Assembly (NCBI GenBank): GCA_963721975.1
Contig: CAVRLF010000004.1
Location: forward strand, 3,033 to 67,032
Direction of reading: 5' to 3'
DNA length: 64,000 bases
DNA from: an uncultured Alphaproteobacteria bacterium
GTDB taxonomy: Bacteria; Pseudomonadota; Alphaproteobacteria; Rhizobiales; Rhodomicrobiaceae
Within the stretch, counting starts at the first letter, position 1. Every line of letters begins with the position of its first letter. Shown here piece after piece: positions 1,555-64,000 of this stretch. The position numbers were made by a program, and so were the translations under genes. Under the pieces are notes generated by a model. That model did no database searches. It had not been told where the DNA came from and worked only from the letters and a program-made list of their open reading frames with translations.

Positions 1555-2826
1555 ATGGAAGTCATGCATGAGCGTGTCGCCGGGCTTGATGTTCACAAGG
1601 AGACGGTCGTTTGCTGTGTGCGCATCATTGCTGGCGGGAAGGTCTCGCGAGAATGCCGAACCTTCGAGACGACTACAACTGCTCTCGAAACTTTGCTGGC
1701 CTGGCTGACGCAGAGCGGATGCACGCATGTGGCGATGGAAGCCACCGGCGTCTATTGGAAGCCCGTGTGGAACATCTTGAACGATGGCAAGTTCGAGCTG
1801 ATTTTGGCCAATGCGGCGCATATCAAGAACGTGCCGGGCCGCAAGACGGATGTGAATGACGCTGCCTGGATCGCCGATCTGACGGCCTTCGGCCTAATCA
1901 ACGCGAGCTTTGTCCCGGACGAAGCGATCCAGGAGTTGCGCTCGCTGATGCGGGCGCGCAAGCAACTGGTCCGCGAGCAGACGCGGCATATCCAGCGGAT
2001 CCAGAAGACGCTCGAAGAAGCCAACATCAAGCTCGATTTCGTGATCAGCGCCATCATGGGCGTTTCCGGGCGGCGGATGATCGAAGCGATGATCGCAGGC
2101 GTGCGCAATCCCCACAAGCTGGCGCAATTGGCCGACCGGCGGATCAAGGCCTCGCCGAAAGCGCTCTACGACGCGCTGCACGGCCGGCTGACCGATCATC
2201 GCCGCTTCATATTGCGGCTTCACCTCGGCCAATACGACGCCTTGGCCTCTTCCATCGCGCAGATTGACGCCCAGACAGATGCGGCGAACGCCAGGATCAC
2301 TGAGGAGGCGGCCACGGGCCGCAGCTCCTTTCGCGACATGACCACGCTTTTGGACGCCATTCCCCGCATTGCGAGTTTGGCGGCGACCGCGATCCTTGCC
2401 GAGATCGGAACCGATATGGGCCGGTTTCCAACGGCTGGGCATCTCGTGTCCTGGGCTGGCTTGTGCCCTGGCCAGAACGAAAGCGCGGGCAAACGCAAAT
2501 CCTCGCGGCTTCGCAAGGGCGCCCCCTAGCTCAAGACGCTGCTCGTCCAATGCGCCTGGGCGGCGGCCAGGAAGAAGGATAGTTACTACAAGGCGCAATT
2601 CAATCGCCTCAAGGCCAGGCGCGGCCCCAAGACAGCGATCTGCGCGGTGGCCGCCTCGATGCTCACGGCGATTTACCACATGCTGAAAGATGGCGTCGAA
2701 CATCAGGATCTTGGGGGCGGCTATTTTGATCGACGCCCGGTCGAGGAAAAAGCCAACCGCCTGGTCGCTCAACTGGCCAAGCTCGGCTTCAGGGCCGAAC
2801 TTCAACCGCTAGCGGAGGCCGCTTGA
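1555..2826 (+). pseudogene. IS110-family recombinase/transposase with premature amber stop at 2527-2529
   Basis: RuvC-like DEDD motifs GLDVHK, MEATG and KTDVNDA, plus C-terminal NESAGK. GAP-TAG-LKTLLVQCAWAA continues in frame to TGA 2824-2826. Confidence 0.9.
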
Positions 2827-3322
2827 TGGCGCTCAAAAACCAGCGGCCGCGCCTGCTCCGGCTACCCGGCCGCGTTGCGGCCGGGTGAGTTTCTTCTTAG
2901 AGCTCACGACGAGCCGCGCGGGCGCGCTTTGAAGCGGGCGGTATTGCCGCCGCGCCTCTTGTGGCTGTGTCTACGCGCTGATGTCCACAGCCTCAGCTTC
3001 TCGTTCCGGTTGCCCGAAAGCGCGAAGCGGACAGCCGCGGCCGACTATGCGCGCCGACCTGAGCCAGCCGGATCAAACAGAGGCGTGCGCGGCTGGCGAA
3101 GGTGGAACTGGCGAAAACGTCATCAAGGCGCCACACCGCACGGGCTTAATCGAATAAGGCATGTAGACATGCCAGCGCTGCAAGACGCGAGCCCGCTCGG
3201 CGCCGTTGATCCGCCTGAGCCTGGACTGAAGATGACTGGCGGAAGATAGACTGTCTGCGCCGGTCACGAAGCCTTGTATGAAGATGCTGAACCACTTTGT
3301 CGTGCGGGGTCGTTGTTAGACT

Positions 3323-3541
3323 ATGTACCTGCATGATTGCCCGGGAGCTGTCCTTGACTACCTCGTTGAGAGCGAAAGCCTCGATTGGGTACTCGCCAGC
3401 CTCATAGAGATAGCCGAGCAGAAAGCCAAAAATCCGCAAGCGGACAAGGTTGCTGCGGCGCAATGGGGCCGGACCATTCATCGGCTTAACGGGTTGCGCG
3501 CGTGGTGCATGGAGTTCGGACCAGAGTCCGGCTGCCGATAG
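3323..3541 (+). CDS. Hypothetical 72-aa protein, paralogue of 3612-3824
   Basis: Conserved blocks with the downstream ORF (LVESESLD, ADKVAAAQW, WC..FGP.SGCR) support coding. Confidence 0.7.
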   Translation: MYLHDCPGAVLDYLVESESLDWVLASLIEIAEQKAKNPQADKVAAAQWGRTIHRLNGLRAWCMEFGPESGCR

Positions 3542-3611
3542 GATCGCTACTCTCCTCTGCAGCTGTTTCCTGTTTCGGGTTTATGCGTCGTCTTTTTGTG
3601 GGGGGTTTGTG

Positions 3612-3824
3612 ATGTATGACCGTCATAGAGATGTCCTCGAATGCCTCGTTGAGAATGAAAGCCTCGATGGGGTTCTCTACAGACTTATAAGAATAGCCGA
3701 GAAGAAGGCTCAATATCAGTACGCAGACAAGGTCTCGGCAGCTCAATGGAAGCGAACCGTTCGCCGGCTTGCCGAGGTTCGCAAATGGTGCGCTGCATTC
3801 GGCCCGGGGTCGGGGTGCCGGTAA
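3612..3824 (+). CDS. Hypothetical 70-aa protein, paralogue of 3323-3541
   Basis: MYDRHRDVLECLVENESLDGVLYRLIRIAEKKAQ..ADKVSAAQWKRTVRRL..WCAAFGPGSGCR. Confidence 0.7.
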   Translation: MYDRHRDVLECLVENESLDGVLYRLIRIAEKKAQYQYADKVSAAQWKRTVRRLAEVRKWCAAFGPGSGCR

Positions 3825-4131
3825 AGTCTGCTTCCGAACCTGCGCCGCCAGCATGAATAGGCTTCGAGAACTCAGACCGCGCCGCCTGCGCTTGAGCGGA
3901 TAAATATTAGCCTGAATAGTTCGAAGTGATCGGAAGGCGCTTGCTCCATCGCCTCGCTTGGGTAGGATGCGTGCAAAACGACACGAAAGCAGCCCTCTGG
4001 GTGGGCAGCTTTCCTACTTGAGGATCGATCGATCTTTCCGCCTTTAATCGCGTCAGACGAAAGGCGGGCTGATCCAGAGGCGCCGCGAGGCCGCAACCGG
4101 CCATGCGCCAGCAACGAGCGAGGTGAGGGCA

Positions 4132-5034
4132 ATGGCGGCTGTGCGCGGCGTGGGATTTTCGAGCGCTGTTCAGGAAGACATCTATTTCGACCGGCTGAGG
4201 GAGAACCTCGACCAGGCTGAGGAGTTCGGCGTCGATTTTGTTGAGTTGCCGCTGTTCATGATGGATTTGATCGCGGGCGGCCGTGTGCTGCAGCCCCAGA
4301 TGCATCGACTGCACGACGCGCTGAAGGCGCGGACCGTCGGATTCACTGCGCACGGCCCTATCGGCCTCAATTTTATGCAGCCGCCGGAGATCGCCGCGCG
4401 CCACCTGACGATCGCCAAGGCGGCCATCGAGGTCGCGGCGGAAATCGGCGCGCCGCATCTCGTTTTGCACACCGGCCGCACGATGGCGCAAACAGACGCG
4501 GAGATCGAAGACCTCTACGCCCGCCAGCGCGACGCCTTCGCCTCGCTCGGAGACATCGCGGCCAAGCATTCGATCGTCATCGCGATCGAGAATATTTTCC
4601 CGACCAGGCCCGGCGAACATGTGGCGCTGCCGTCGCGTCTTGCCCGCGAGATCGAGACGGTCAACCACAGACACGTGCGCGGTTGCCTCGATTTCTCGCA
4701 CGCGACTTTGACCTGCGCTGGCGCGGGCGTGGACTTCTTCGCCGACGCCAAGACGCTCGCCCGCGTCTCACGCCACTTGCATATTCACGATTCGTTCGGC
4801 GACCCGGCGCAGTTCTACACCTTCTCAAGGTCCGAGCGGCTCGCCTACGGGCTCGGCGATCTGCATCTGCCCATCGGCTGGGGCGCGATACAGTGGCCCG
4901 CCATCATGGCGGAGTTCACCTTCGAGCCGGACGCGATCTTCAACCTCGAACTACCCCTCCCATACTGGTTCGCGCTCGAAGACAGCGTTCGCGCCGTTAA
5001 GGAGATGGCCGATCTCTACCGGTCCCGCAGCTGA
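4132..5034 (+). CDS. Sugar phosphate isomerase/epimerase (AP endonuclease family 2 TIM barrel)
   Basis: Motifs LVLHTG, IAIEN, CLDFSHA and HLHIHD. Confidence 0.8.
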   Translation: MAAVRGVGFSSAVQEDIYFDRLRENLDQAEEFGVDFVELPLFMMDLIAGGRVLQPQMHRLHDALKARTVGFTAHGPIGLNFMQPPEIAARHLTIAKAAIEVAAEIGAPHLVLHTGRTMAQTDAEIEDLYARQRDAFASLGDIAAKHSIVIAIENIFPTRPGEHVALPSRLAREIETVNHRHVRGCLDFSHATLTCAGAGVDFFADAKTLARVSRHLHIHDSFGDPAQFYTFSRSERLAYGLGDLHLPIGWGAIQWPAIMAEFTFEPDAIFNLELPLPYWFALEDSVRAVKEMADLYRSRS

Positions 5035-9518: not shown

Positions 9519-9558
9519 GGTTAAGAGAAGGTTGAGATTGGGTTTGTTTCGTAAAACA
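9519..9558 (-). repeat. Core copy of dispersed AT-rich repeat (TGTTTTACGAAACAAACCCAATCT...TTAACC)
   Basis: Reverse complement of the core at 13571-13611 and 44449-44488. Confidence 0.75.
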
Positions 9559-9800
9559 GGGAGCGGCCCGCTCCGAACTCGTCATCCAGGCCTTGCGAAG
9601 CGCGAGCAGCGCCGCGCCCTCGTCCATCACAAAGTGCTTAAATGTTTATGTGTCTGGATTTTGCCGCCCACGGAAGCGCAAGCTGACGGCGGTATTCGAA
9701 GGAGATGGCGTCTTTCGCAATCAACAATGGATCATAAAAAAATCGGTGTCCGGGATCGCCGCCCTGACGGCCATCCCGATGGAAGAAGGGTGACGATGCG

Positions 9801-13471: not shown

Positions 13472-13611
13472 CGCATCAACGCTTCCAAACGCAATCCCAA
13501 ACGCAAGCCTTAAGATAAGGTGAACCCGTCGATTTTGAGCGCTTCAAATATAGATGCTTATATATAGACTTGTTTTACGAAACAAACCCAATCTTGACCC
13601 ATTATTAACCG
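13472..13611 (+). repeat. Long copy of dispersed ~140-bp intergenic repeat
   Basis: Colinear similarity with 44352-44488 (GCAATCC, CGCAAG, TTAAGAT, TGAGCGCTTC, TGTTTTAC, CCAATCTTG, TTAACC). Confidence 0.8.
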
Positions 13612-44351: not shown

Positions 44352-44488
44352 CCGCATCCGCTTCTGAACGCAATCCTGAGCGCAAGGCTTAAGATCGATT
44401 TGTCAATTCTGAGCGCTTCGAATAAGTGCTTGGATAGTTTAATAGGCCTGTTTTACCAAACGAAACCAATCTTGGTTCTCTGTTAACC
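44352..44488 (+). repeat. Long copy of dispersed ~140-bp intergenic repeat
   Basis: Colinear with 13472-13611. Confidence 0.8.
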
Positions 44489-50329: not shown

Positions 50330-50490
50330 CCCCTCATCCTGTCCCTCTCCCAGCAAACACGCCTTGGCGTGCTTGCCTTCAAATGATGCCGTACCCGCAA
50401 GCGGGTACGGCTGGAGAGGGAACGACGTTGCAACGGCCGCGCCGGAACTCCCTCTCCCATGGGAAGAGGGTTGGGGTGAGGGGCGCCCTC
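50330..50490. repeat. REP-like composite palindromic element between the two yejA copies
   Basis: CCCCTCATCC..CCCTCTCCC, CACGCC/GGCGTG hairpin, and CCCTCTCCCATGGGAAGAGGGTTGGGGTGAGGGG. Confidence 0.75.
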
Positions 50491-59697: not shown

Positions 59698-61004
59698 CCG
59701 CGCGTGTCACCGCTTCGGGCGTTTCCGTTGAGATTCAAGGCGATCTGCCCGAGAAGGAACGCCTCTCCCGAGCCATGCAGACCTTCCTGCAAGAGTTCGG
59801 CGCCACGGCTGCGATGCACATGGAAGCTTGCGTGCGCTGCGGCGTCTGCGCCCATGCCTGCCACTTCTACATCAGCACGCAGGACCCGAAATATACGCCG
59901 GTCCATAAGCTCAGGCCCTTCGAGCAGGCCTATCACCGGCATTTCGGGCCGTTCGCGCCGCTCTACCGGTTCTTCGGCATCGCGCCCAGCGTGACGATCG
60001 AAGAGCTGGAGGAATGGCAGCAGCTTCTCTACGATTCCTGCAACATGTGCGGGCGCTGCACGCTGGCTTGCCCAATGGGCATCGACATCGCCGAGCTTGT
60101 GAAAGAGGCGCGGCACGGCATGTATGCCGCCGGCCTCGTTCCCGACCGGCTGGAGCTGATGGACCGCACCACCAAGAAATGGGGCAGTCCGGCAACGCCG
60201 GCGGAAGACTTCGCCGATATCCTCAACGACGCGGCCGAGGAGCATGGCGTCAAGATCAATGTCGATCTGCCGAAGGCCGATATCCTCGTCACCGTGGCGC
60301 CCGCCGAGCTGACCGAGCACACCAAGGCGCTCGCCGATATCGCCAGGATCCTGAACCGGATGCGCGTCAGCTGGACCTACAGCTCCAAGGGCTTCGAAGC
60401 CTCGAACATCGGCTTCATCAACGGCGACGTCGAACTGCAGGAGAAGATGACGCGGCAGATCATCTACACCGCCATCGAGATCGGCGCGCACACGCTGCTT
60501 TTGCCGGAATGCGGCCATGCCTATGGCGCGGCACGCTGGGAGGCTCCGCGCTGGTATGGCTATCAGCCGCCCGTGCGCATCATTCACATGATGGAGTTTT
60601 TGGCGGAATCCCTCGCCGTCGGCGCCATCAAGGTGAAGAAAATCGGCTCCACGGCCGCGTTCCACGACCCCTGCCAGGTTATTCGCAGAGGCGGGCTGAA
60701 AGAACAGCCGCGCGATGTGCTCCGCGCGCTGGGCTTCAAAATCAAGGAGTTGGCGGATCATGGCCCGCTCGCCTTTTGCTGTGGAGGCGGCGGCGGCGTG
60801 GTCTCCTGCACGCGCGCCGACCCGTTGCGCAACCGGGCTTTCGAGATCAAGAAACGGCAGGTTGAGGATGCGGGCGCGGCGCATTTCGTGACGGGCTGCG
60901 GGCAATGCCGGATCACGCTCGCCAAGGGTGCTGCTCATTTCAAATGGGACAAACACGTCGAGAGCCTGCTCGAACTCATGGCTGACAATCTGGAGGGTGA
61001 ATAA
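59694..61004 (+). CDS. isp2: Isp2-type HdrD-like Fe-S protein
   Basis: CVRCGVCAHAC and CNMCGRCTLACP ferredoxin motifs, ECGH, HDPCQ, CCGGGGG (CCG domains). Confidence 0.85.
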   Translation: MTARVTASGVSVEIQGDLPEKERLSRAMQTFLQEFGATAAMHMEACVRCGVCAHACHFYISTQDPKYTPVHKLRPFEQAYHRHFGPFAPLYRFFGIAPSVTIEELEEWQQLLYDSCNMCGRCTLACPMGIDIAELVKEARHGMYAAGLVPDRLELMDRTTKKWGSPATPAEDFADILNDAAEEHGVKINVDLPKADILVTVAPAELTEHTKALADIARILNRMRVSWTYSSKGFEASNIGFINGDVELQEKMTRQIIYTAIEIGAHTLLLPECGHAYGAARWEAPRWYGYQPPVRIIHMMEFLAESLAVGAIKVKKIGSTAAFHDPCQVIRRGGLKEQPRDVLRALGFKIKELADHGPLAFCCGGGGGVVSCTRADPLRNRAFEIKKRQVEDAGAAHFVTGCGQCRITLAKGAAHFKWDKHVESLLELMADNLEGE

Positions 61005-62752
61005 TGTCGAACCGCGTCGTAGTCGACCCCATCACCCGCATCGAGGGGCATCTGCGCATCGAGGCCGAGACCGACGACTCCGGTCGTATCAAAGCTGCGT
61101 ATAGCTCGGGCACCATGGTGCGCGGCCTCGAACTGATCCTCAAGGGCCGAGACCCGCGAGACGCCTGGGTCTTCGCCCAGCGCATCTGCGGCGTCTGCAC
61201 GCTGGTCCACGGCCTCGCCTCGGTCCGCGCGGTGGAGAATGCGCTGAACTACACCATCCCCGCCAATGCTGAGCTCATCCGCAATCTCATGACCGGCGCC
61301 CAATATGTGCATGATCACGTGATGCACTTCTATCACCTGCATGCGCTTGACTGGGTGGACGTAATTTCCGCGCTCAAGGCCGATCCCAAGGAAACCTCGG
61401 ACCTTGCGCAATCGATCTCGGCTTACGCCAAATCGAGCCCCGGCTATTTCGCGGATGCGAAGAAGAAGCTCAAGAGCTTCGTGGATGCGGGCCAGCTTGG
61501 CATTTTCGCGGGCGGCTATTGGGGGCACCCGGGCTACAAGCTGCCGCCGGAGGCCAATCTGATCGCGGTGGCGCACTATCTGGATGCGCTGTCCTGGCAG
61601 CGGGAGGTGGCGAAGCTGCACGCCATTTTCGGCGGCAAGAATCCGCATCCGAACTTGCTCGTGGGCGGCATGCCGACCCCCATCAGCATCGATCCAGGTG
61701 GGGAGAGCGGCGGAGCGGCGTCGACAGCGCTCAACATCGCGGGCTTGCAGGAGGTGCGCGCTATCATCCAGTCGATGCAAGCCTTCGTTGACCAGGTTTA
61801 TCTGCCCGACACGCTCGCAATCGCCAGCTCCTACAAGGACTGGTTCAAGCGAGGGGAGGGTGTGGGAAATTTCCTGTGCTTCGGCGACATGCCGACGCGG
61901 GGCAGCGATGGCAAGCTGAGCTCGTTCTTCCCAGCCGGGGCGATCCTGAACCGCGATCTCAGCAAGATCGAGCCCATCGACCTGAACGACCCGCAGCAGA
62001 TTCAGGAATTCGCCGCGCATTCCTGGTACGCCTATGCGGGCGGCAAGACCACCGGCCTGCACCCTTACGACGGCGAGACCTCGTTCGACTTTACCGGCCC
62101 GCAGCCGCCCTTCGAGCAGCTTAATGTCGCGGAGAGCTATTCCTGGCTGAAAGCGCCCCGCTGGCGCGGCAAGGTCATGGAGGTCGGCCCGCTGGCGCGC
62201 ATGCTCATGCTTTACGCCACCGGCCACGAGCCAACCAAAGCGCTCACCGCCTCGGTGCTCGAACAACTGGATCTGCCGCTGAAGGCGATGTTCTCCACGA
62301 TGGGGCGCACGGCGGCTCGCACCATCGAGACCAAGATCGTGGCAGACCAGATGCAACATTGGCTCGACGCGCTTACGGCCAACATCAAGGCTGGCGATCT
62401 CGCCGTACACAACCCGGCGCTTTGGGAGCCGTCGACCTGGCCCAGACAGGCGAAAGGCGTGGCCTTCATGGAGGCGCCGCGCGGGGCGCTCGCCCACTGG
62501 ATCGTGATCGAGGACGGGACAATCGCGAACTATCAGGCCGTCGTGCCCAGCACATGGAACGCCGGGCCGCGCGATGCGGCGGGCCAGCCCGGCCCCTATG
62601 AGGCTGCCCTGATGGACCGCCATGCCTTGCACGATCCGAAACAGCCGCTCGAAATCCAGCGCACCATCCACAGCTTCGATCCGTGCATCGCCTGCGCCGT
62701 GCATGTGCTCGATCCAAACGGTGAGGGTTTATCAAGCATCGAAGTGACTTGA
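61004..62752 (+). CDS. hynL: [NiFe]-hydrogenase large subunit
   Basis: DPITRIEGH, L1 RICGVCTLVH, L2 FDPCIACAVH, plus a cleavable C-terminal extension. Confidence 0.95.
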   Translation: MSNRVVVDPITRIEGHLRIEAETDDSGRIKAAYSSGTMVRGLELILKGRDPRDAWVFAQRICGVCTLVHGLASVRAVENALNYTIPANAELIRNLMTGAQYVHDHVMHFYHLHALDWVDVISALKADPKETSDLAQSISAYAKSSPGYFADAKKKLKSFVDAGQLGIFAGGYWGHPGYKLPPEANLIAVAHYLDALSWQREVAKLHAIFGGKNPHPNLLVGGMPTPISIDPGGESGGAASTALNIAGLQEVRAIIQSMQAFVDQVYLPDTLAIASSYKDWFKRGEGVGNFLCFGDMPTRGSDGKLSSFFPAGAILNRDLSKIEPIDLNDPQQIQEFAAHSWYAYAGGKTTGLHPYDGETSFDFTGPQPPFEQLNVAESYSWLKAPRWRGKVMEVGPLARMLMLYATGHEPTKALTASVLEQLDLPLKAMFSTMGRTAARTIETKIVADQMQHWLDALTANIKAGDLAVHNPALWEPSTWPRQAKGVAFMEAPRGALAHWIVIEDGTIANYQAVVPSTWNAGPRDAAGQPGPYEAALMDRHALHDPKQPLEIQRTIHSFDPCIACAVHVLDPNGEGLSSIEVT

Positions 62753-63030
62753 CAACTCGGCAGCATCCGCGGACACAGCAATGCGCACATCGCTTCGGCT
62801 AAGCTCGACTTTGTAAATTTCAGACGGCGAGGCAAAGTGCGGTGAGCCGTTGCAAGACAGCGGCTAGAATTTCTACGCTATCGCGACTTCGGACATCCGC
62901 AAAAACAAGGGAATCGGTTCGCCCTTACCGGCGCCGCGGCGTTGAGGCTGAGGCGTGTTGGATCCGTGACGGCGGCTTTGCGCGGCCTCCGCTCGGGCAA
63001 GCGATGCGACAGCAGTCAGCGCCCTGCCAG

Positions 63031-63064
63031 GGTTAAAAAAGGGCTGAGATTGGTTTTGTTTCGT
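63031..63064 (-). repeat. Truncated copy of the dispersed AT-rich repeat core, ending at the intron 5' splice site
   Basis: GGTTAA..GAGATTGGTTTTGTTTCGT matches 9519-9552. Confidence 0.75.
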
Positions 63065-63253
63065 GTGCGCCGGGCGACCGGGAAGGAGTAGGTGGTCCAC
63101 TGCGATGAAGGATTAGCAACCCACATCGGCCCCGAGCCGTGCGGAGGTATCCGCGAGGATATCTGCGAAGCGTCGGCAGGGGATCGCATAGGCCAGCCAT
63201 TGAGCCGCGAAATCGGCCTTCTTCTGGGCGCCGACGTCGTTCTACTGACGGAG
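63065..63253 (+). ncRNA. Group II intron, 5' part of domain I (interrupted by IS21)
   Basis: Starts GTGCG. Contains CCACATCGGCCCCGAGCCGTGCG..GAAGCGTCGGCAGGGG..AGGCCAGCCATTGAGCCGCGAAA, which I recall as typical of one bacterial group II intron class. No RT gene or domain V in the window. Confidence 0.7.

Positions 63254-64000
<747 letters not shown>

Follow-up and report, generated by a model that had tools for sequence, protein, structure and literature searches.

A decayed group II intron at the 27-nt core of a dispersed repeat, within a nest of mobile elements in a Rhodomicrobiaceae genome

The window analysed here is the whole 64,000-nucleotide stretch, which corresponds to positions 3033-67032 of contig C4 in a 5.84-Mb, 21-contig genome with 60% G+C. 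Near its 3' end lies a 582-amino-acid ORF that, from its C-terminal motif, we take to be the large subunit of a [NiFe] hydrogenase. In the spacer downstream of this ORF, a copy of a dispersed repeat is followed directly by the first bases of a group II intron, which is in turn broken off by an insertion sequence running past the end of the window (Table 1).

Table 1. Features of the window discussed in the text (window coordinates)
Feature	Position	Strand	Evidence or remark
Context ORF, 582 aa, ends ...HSFDPCIACAVH	61004..62752	+	ORF list; repeat in spacer downstream
Left half of ~590-bp MITE-like element, from terminal repeat GGACATCCGCAAAAAC at 62891 to intron site	62891..63064	+	nhmmer
Left part of core (GAGATTGGTTTTGTTTCGT), the 5' exon; IBS1 TTTCGT at 63059-63064	63046..63064	+	
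Uninterrupted stand-alone core copy (empty site)	9534..9560	+	
Uninterrupted stand-alone core copy	13569..13595	-	
More diverged core copy	44447..44473	-	3 mismatches in 19-mer
First 188 nt of group II intron (5' GTGCG, 5' part of domain I)	63065..63252	+	RF02005, 96.6 bits; aligns to full-length homologues from nucleotide 1
GCGAAA, earlier EBS1 candidate; not EBS1	63207..63212	+	family-invariant; GCG in helix GCCGCG/CGCGGU
Predicted EBS2 AUCGGCCU, internal loop	63212..63219	+	complementary to AGGYCGA(U) in relatives' exons (L011, L005, L006; L067), none in window exon
True EBS1 UCUACU, last six bases of hairpin loop GUUCUACU, stem CGUC/GACG	63241..63246	+	covariation
GACGGA, 6-bp target duplication of IS21-family insertion	63247..63252	+	second copy beyond window, C4:68950-68955
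IS21-family element interrupting the intron; left end 63253, istA from 63453, ~2.7 kb further past window	63253..64000	+	IstB_IS21, E = 7e-63

The AT-richer stretch upstream ends in ...GGGTTAAAAAAGGGCTGAGATTGGTTTTGTTTCGT at position 63064 and GTGCGCCGGG begins at 63065; that is, the intron start GTGCG stands immediately 3' of ...GAGATTGGTTTTGTTTCGT. Rfam model RF02005 (group-II-D1D4-6, gathering score 49) matched the window at 63092-63325 (E = 5.7e-26). The last third of this match is spurious, as it aligns to IS21-family sequence. Only model positions 1 to about 165 represent real intron in the window, and the continuation lies 2.7 kb downstream. Position 63065 is the first base in common with 13 homologues and carries the expected 5' GUGYG boundary. 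With the IS21-family element left out, the intron picks up again at C4:68950 and runs colinear with homologues of 1.9 kb, among them a 1913-nt sister intron on contigs C8, C3 and C10 of the same genome (86% identity, BLAST). The reverse transcriptase of domain IV (RVT_1) was detected in two overlapping frames (profile positions 1-92 and 100-205, E = 2.7e-10 and 5.6e-18), and Pfam found no HNH or En domain in the intron-encoded protein. A candidate domain V (GAGCCGGAUGCCUUAAUUGGGCCCGUCCGGAUC, C4:70638-70670) is kept in eight homologues; its fold, drawn by eye, has a 2-nt bulge, and a search with RF00029 at E <= 0.1 was negative there. We conclude that a group II intron of the Rfam family D1D4-6 begins here, 63065-63252 being its 5' end. 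A previous sequence-only reading of the window had assigned the GTGCG start to such an intron and had placed the insertion precisely within a copy of a dispersed repeat. The Rfam score and the split RVT_1 confirm the former, and the junction 63064/63065, which falls inside a conserved 27-nt core, confirms the latter.

Three lesions mark the window copy. The IS21-family element interrupts domain I, 6 nt past the EBS1 loop (see below). Its assignment follows from the order of its genes, IstA and then the IstB ATPase, and from the 6-bp duplication; the 508-aa ORF upstream of istB gave only a weak match to a Mu-transposase C-terminal domain. By BLAST, the genome has more than 17 copies whose left ends are identical in the 167-169 bases compared. 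The second lesion is a frameshift in the reverse transcriptase, at a point where the frame is continuous in the homologue L080 and part of a single open frame of 513 aa in the metagenomic relative L118. The third is an IS110-family element in domain VI. Relatives of the intron end ...CCCGCGTTCCTACCGCGAT↓, followed by various exons (arrows mark junctions here and below), and at the same place the window copy reads ...CCCGCGTTCCT↓TGTACGTTGCAATCC, the latter forming the left terminus of the IS110-family element. This insertion breaks domain VI 8 nt short of the 3' splice site; those final 8 nt are found on contig C6, and the window copy lacks an intact domain VI with a branch A 7-8 nt before that site.

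A second IS21-like element (L001 6327-8472, C4:71326-73471; left end TGTCAAGCGACATCC; copies on C10, C3, C20 and at the start of C4) has in turn split the IS110-family element, at position 620-623 of the latter, whose 3' half lies on C6. Past the second IS21-like element, C4 carries unrelated O-antigen and glycosyltransferase-like genes, a layout that points to either an assembly join or a rearrangement mediated by IS elements. Continuity between C4 and C6 found no support: upstream of the IS110 3' half, C6 has another REP-like repeat and not the second IS21-like element, and the genes downstream are unrelated to hydrogenase. This second dispersed repeat (about 100-130 bp, arms GGGAGAGGG...CCCTCTCCC) is unrelated to the core. 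It adjoins the displaced 3' half at C6:339262-339500 and is present in more than 100 other places, for example at about 50330-50460 of the window (C4:53362-53490).

The intron site lies at the centre of a 27-nt core, (G/A)AGATTGGKTTYGTTTYGY↓AAAACAGG (also noted as (G/A)AGATTGGKTTYGTTTYGYAAAACAGG), which is much better conserved than the repeats that bear it. The pattern ATTGGKWTYGTTTBGYAAAA had 168 exact matches in the genome (versus none in a reversed control). It was present in 19 of the 39 genomes of the genus, with 106 copies in G008, 80 in G010 and 55 in G023. Within the window, the 19-mer GAGATTGGKTTTGTTTCGT occurred four times at up to 3 mismatches, and not at all in 100 shuffles. The uninterrupted copy that the sequence-only reading had given as 9519-9558 does read GGTTAAGAGAAGGTTGAGATTGGGTTTGTTTCGT↓AAAACAGG. 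No Rfam match to the core was obtained, even at E <= 10, and neither a sigma-70-like promoter nor an intrinsic terminator was found at two core copies checked. The core often has GGTTAA-N8-9 before it and CCTATAT...ATAAGCA after it, and contains a small palindrome, TGTTT-N4-AAACA.

Upstream of the intron, the repeat takes the form of a MITE-like element of about 590 bp, with the left end (C)TAAGGACAGGCGCAAAAAC and the right end ...TTATTTATGCGGATGTCCTAA. Using nhmmer, a profile of 16 full copies aligned with its positions 47-249 to window 62872-63064 (E = 2e-57) and recovered 126 pieces in the genome, 17 of them full-length; the 45 bases preceding the intron occurred 56 times at E <= 1e-3. Full-length copies have imperfect terminal inverted repeats (left GGACAGGCGCAAAAAC versus GGACATCCGCATAAAT for the reverse complement of the right end) and 3-bp TWA target-site duplications, which match as TAA/TAA or TTA/TTA at C17:279647, C6:89423, C19:389827, C11:138214 and C12:71019 and are imperfect at other copies. 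A search of this genome for left-end-only and right-end-only profile matches within 4 kb of each other, as an autonomous partner would give, returned none. Among 132 fuzzy core matches, 54 lay within MITE-like copies and 78 stood alone, the latter in several short repeat families with unrelated flanks that are alike only in about 27 bases. The dispersed repeat is real, then, but it is not the single family first supposed: it is largely a MITE-like transposable element plus several short families with only the core in common.

We then considered how the intron recognizes its exon. GCGAAA, mostly in the loop of a local hairpin GCCG-CGAAAT-CGGC, had previously been put forward as a candidate EBS1. 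These letters do occupy 63207-63212, but an alignment of 12 homologues from the genus and of L067, from a Hyphomicrobiaceae MAG, over their first 330 nt speaks against that role. GCGAAA is unchanged in all aligned homologues despite their differing exons, and instead of the local hairpin the Rfam consensus pairs GCCGCG (63204-63209) with a distant CGCGGU beyond the IS, which puts GCG into a conserved helix. A hairpin loop 30 nt downstream (GU plus 6 nt) varies along with the exon. Its sequence is UCUCUU where the exon ends in AAGAGA, ACCGCU with AGCGGU, UCUGCAA with UUGCAGA, UCAAAAG with CUUUUGA and ACGAAA with UUUCGU. Comparing this loop with exon positions -6 to -1 in 11 homologues, 92.4% of the cells were paired versus 58% in shuffles, and none of 500 shuffles scored as high. 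Five of the six pairs were changed on both sides, and pairing fell sharply when the partners were slid along each other. This covariation places the true EBS1 of the window copy at 63241-63246. The internal loop right after GCGAAAU acts as EBS2, AUCGGCCU pairing with AGGYCGAU.

Against its own exon, ...GATTGGTTTTG↓TTTCGT, the window copy forms 2 of 6 pairs through EBS1 and none through EBS2. It is non-cognate, since UCUACU pairs with only two of the six exon bases. A cognate site for its loops (...GGCCGAU..AGUAGA↓, i.e. ...AGGCCGAU..AGUAGA↓) was not found in the genus, and the regular-expression matches in the genome were unremarkable; L086 and L087, the sole matches in the genus to RGTRGR↓GTGCGCCGGG, proved not to be introns. 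The window copy is a dead, non-cognate relic in a nest of four mobile elements. The proposal that this very intron homes to the repeat fails on its non-cognate loops and its three lesions.

The same junction, ...TTYGTTTYSY↓GTGCG, was found at five firm sites of the genome: C4:66096 (the window copy), C19:500085, C5:78757, C10:376621 and C3:122347. An eight-base trace at C14:131641 is a doubtful sixth. Apart from the window copy, these core junctions hold short 5' intron fragments only. Loss of the 3' end that leaves 5' fragments is described as the usual decay of RmInt1-like introns (PMC4181065). The variable flanks of the five junctions (-90 to -28) are only 45-66% alike and come from at least four different repeat families, so we take the junctions for separate insertions and not for copies of one. 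As none of the core-resident copies in this genome keeps a cognate EBS1, it is from the geometry of the junctions alone that homing within it is read. A possible remnant of such an EBS1 in the C5 fragment (GU-GCAA) was rejected on alignment, GCAAGG being ORF sequence brought there by an internal deletion.

A cognate intron was found in metagenomes. Scanning for the left part of the core followed by GTGCG returned 84 contigs, seven of which continue as this intron; their intron 5' ends are identical and start at the same nucleotide of the core, and at least five different flanks stand upstream of them. One of them, L118 (Ga0187777_10020070), contains the whole intron with an intact, open reverse transcriptase (513 aa) and scores 180.7 bits with RF02005, against 96.6 bits for the window copy and the gathering score of 49. 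Its EBS1 loop GUACGAAA (ACGAAA) pairs with its exon UUUUGU at 6 of 6 positions, one of them a wobble, and is perfectly complementary to the consensus UUUCGU, whereas the window copy does not show this complementarity to the last 5-7 exon bases. L118 carries ACGAAA in the downstream loop in addition to the invariant GCGAAA. A second, diverged group II intron lies in domain VI of L118, which makes 2300-4242 a twintron (RF02005 130.6 bits; RF00029 at 4165-4240); it sits in roughly the same region as the IS110-family element in other copies. The contig ends before the 3' exon, and no 3' junction of the metagenomic lineage is readable. The sole true homologue from the scan of genome contigs, L067, has EBS1 ACGAAA at ...CCCGTTTCGT↓, outside the core.

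These alignments show a core-adapted lineage within the intron family, its adaptation lying in the downstream hairpin loop. In this form the idea of an intron family homing to a multicopy repeat holds up well, for a branch with EBS1 ACGAAA, through the five genome junctions and the seven metagenome contigs.

On the 3' side, a core-resident intron is expected to end CTACCGCGAT↓AAAAYAGG. The earlier expectation that AAAACA resumes past the intron does not hold in place, where the IS110-family element directly follows the intron body, but displaced or decayed junctions on C6 and C19 do reach the right half of the repeat. On C6, the junction reads ...GGTATCT↓ACCGCGAT↓AAAAAAGCCCATAAGTAAGCAT, the last part being the right half of a short repeat family: the IS110 right end is followed by the last eight bases of the intron and then by AAAAAAGCCCATAAGTAAGCATACAAG (compare AAAACAGCcccgccATAAGTAAGCATATAAGTA in the short repeat family). 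On C19, 1.6 kb separate the left half of the MITE-like element from its right half (profile positions 263-384) downstream, with the intron 5' fragment and a piece of the IS110 3' end in between. BLAST found no right half of the repeat within 9 kb of the junctions; the one on C19 was later detected by profile search. The left flank of the window copy belongs to the long MITE form, the displaced one on the 3' side (C6) to the short repeat form; the two flanks may come from separate insertions that recombination brought together.

The IS110-family element is 1539 bp long in G052, with a CT core at both junctions, a DEDD transposase and no terminal inverted repeats. The complete G052 copy matches PF01548 and PF02371 (Transposase_20, C-domain) and the fragment in the genome of the window matches PF01548, which places the element in the IS110 family. 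We located it at C4:70704-71325 (L001 5705-6326) and C6:339261-338349, and in other genomes at G000:C17:420831, on G052:C17 (L036) and on G021:C283 (L088). Its site is always 8 nt before the 3' splice site of the intron (...GTTCCT↓TGTACG... ...GGTATCT↓ACCGCGAT). Four right junctions from three genomes have different 3' exons, and it is therefore apparently the intron itself that the element targets. At the left end of the element are found GCGGTAG, the complement of the target CTACCGC, and ACGGTATC, identical to its own right end. Such short matches would fit a bridge RNA, here a candidate only. In its DEDD transposase, the lack of inverted repeats, the CT at both junctions and a repeated, sequence-specific target, the element is like the IS621-type IS110 elements, which are guided by bridge RNA; it differs from them in its target, domain VI of a group II intron (...GTTCCT↓ACCGCGAT). 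We know of no described case of an IS110-family insertion targeted to this domain. A parasitism on three levels is conceivable, in which the core (about 40-170 copies, in one clade of a Rhizobiales genus) would be used by the ACGAAA intron lineage and this in turn by the IS110-family element at domain VI; we offer this as a tentative picture, somewhat short of an even chance.

The explanation that we favour (probability roughly 0.7) is that an intron sub-lineage homes to the core by EBS-IBS pairing and that the window copy is a dead descendant of it with exchanged loops. The sub-lineage retrohomes into the core by ordinary EBS-IBS pairing, its EBS1 being the sequence ACGAAA in the homologue of the hairpin loop 63239-63246. 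Environmental relatives still carry it intact and apparently recently active, and at least five remnants of it are left in this genome. The window copy was disabled by the IS21-family element, the frameshift in the reverse transcriptase and the IS110-family element, and a later rearrangement moved its 3' end elsewhere. Its present EBS2 and EBS1 (AUCGGCCU and UCUACU) belong to another type of target and would have been acquired after insertion, most likely by gene conversion or recombination with a paralogous intron; this last step alone is inferred. The intron sequence itself is consistent with such an exchange. Over intron positions 121-180, identity of the window copy to the G008 introns is 97% and to L118 77%, whereas in many other 60-nt windows the value for L118 is 90-95%; unique states in common with L118, the G008 introns and the C8 type are scattered along the intron in a reticulate pattern. 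A mosaic test in 100-nt windows gave no signal and no clean breakpoint, the cassette effect being seen only in 60-nt windows with L118 as reference.

The main alternative to loop conversion is a graft: the window intron would have entered its own cognate site elsewhere, and its body would later have been recombined onto an old 5' remnant resident in the core. Such remnants are plentiful, and the first 117 nt of the window copy have derived states in common with the one on C19. The EBS loops of G008 type, the heavy rearrangement of the region (with the IS110-family halves on C4 and C6) and the differing types of the left and right repeat flanks all agree with a graft. However, the displaced 3' end on C6 also sits in a core-type repeat, which is unexpected for a foreign intron. 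In addition, 3' of the EBS loops the window copy has unique states in common with the core-homing L118 at positions 193, 195 and 1747-1857, and the cognate site that such an intron would have come from was not found in the genus. We consider a graft unlikely. A single ancestral insertion, with the intron-bearing repeat then multiplied by transposition or duplication of the repeat, is much less probable still. The MITE-like element has ends and target duplications and could carry cargo, and the window and C19 copies, with their common derived states, both bear the IS110-family element. But intron-bearing copies are found in at least four repeat families that are alike only in the 27-nt core, their flanks as divergent as stated above, and the metagenomic copies are identical introns in different flanks. 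The presence of the IS110-family element in both copies is explained by its own targeting, since it is also found in intron copies outside any repeat. Homing of the window intron by means of GCGAAA (63207-63212) as EBS1 against TTTCGT, as first proposed, has the least to commend it and is scarcely credible. Allowing G-U wobbles, GCGAAA(U) can pair with (G)TTTCGT, and this is possible for five of the six exon variants at the junctions. Yet 13 homologues with entirely different exons all have the identical motif; it is part of the Rfam consensus with its GCG in a helix, and is accompanied by the covarying loop 30 nt downstream, in which the cognate metagenomic intron has its ACGAAA besides the invariant GCGAAA. 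Moreover, G008 and G010, with 106 and 80 cores, respectively, have GCGAAA introns, but the intron 5' ends recovered there lie outside the core and no firm core junction was found.

Bacterial group II introns persist by way of harmless repeated sites, those known being insertion sequences, terminators and attC sites. For class C (IIC) introns, including the attC-targeting subgroup, a short motif in many intergenic copies is such a landing site; what these introns recognise is a stem-loop together with a very short IBS1, and they lack an EBS2. The family studied here differs from them: its EBS1 is 6 nt long and covaries with the exon, it also has an EBS2 loop, and no hairpin precedes its insertion point. 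Its closer likeness is to RmInt1, RmInt2 and Sr.md.I1 of Sinorhizobium (class D, IIB3). Like theirs, its intron-encoded protein has no endonuclease domain; targeting is guided by EBS sequences (EBS1, EBS2 and EBS3 in the RmInt1 group), and target specificity diverges through changes in the EBS loops. The RmInt1 group homes into multicopy mobile DNA of Rhizobiales, RmInt2 into the inverted repeats of an IS; the target here is not an IS but the 27-nt core of a MITE-like element and of short intergenic repeats. The same set of properties is described for RmInt1-type introns: the missing endonuclease domain, EBS guidance, multicopy mobile targets, retargeting through the loops and decay of the 3' end (PMC4615759, PMC4181065). 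The C-terminal motif of class D is LX3AX3PXLF[V/A]HW (PMC4615759), and it was not seen in the C-terminus of our intron-encoded protein, ...LAEDFLPKPKILHPWPAVRFAATHPR (...PKILHPWPxVRFAAxHPR). Because this motif is absent, we left the intron out of class D; its organisation is like that of the RmInt1 group, its class being judged by the En domain and the C-terminal motif alone.

A literature search found nothing that joins group II intron retrohoming with miniature inverted-repeat elements, and to our knowledge there is no earlier case of a conserved core, common to a MITE-like element and to short intergenic repeats, serving as an intron target. It would be a new kind of landing site, short, strongly conserved and present in a MITE-like element as well as in several intergenic repeat families. 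The material also forms a natural series for intron extinction and retargeting: an intact, cognate metagenomic intron, five decayed remnants and one nearly full copy with exchanged exon-binding loops. Two questions are raised by it. One is the role of the 27-nt core, given its roughly 170 copies and its conservation above that of its surroundings. The other concerns an IS110-family recombinase naturally aimed at the domain VI of an intron, which is of relevance to programmable bridge-RNA recombinases; if the targeting is true and the left end encodes a bridge RNA reading ...GTTCCT↓ACCGCGAT, the pair would be a naturally occurring example of a mobile element that is programmed to inactivate another one.

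In this genome, the intron now active is probably the 1913-nt sister intron. It is present in three full-length copies that are 99.8-99.9% identical (C8:119752, C3:110543 and C10:5982, the latter two on the minus strand), at sites of the form GGGTCG(C/G)(G/A)AGCGG(T/C)↓C, with the matching EBS1 ACCGCU. In G018, a family member was found twice (loci L007 and L013) after TATATTTAACGG(N3-4)TTTTGA↓, with the matching EBS1 UCAAAAG; these sites may represent a further repeated target, this one in another species.
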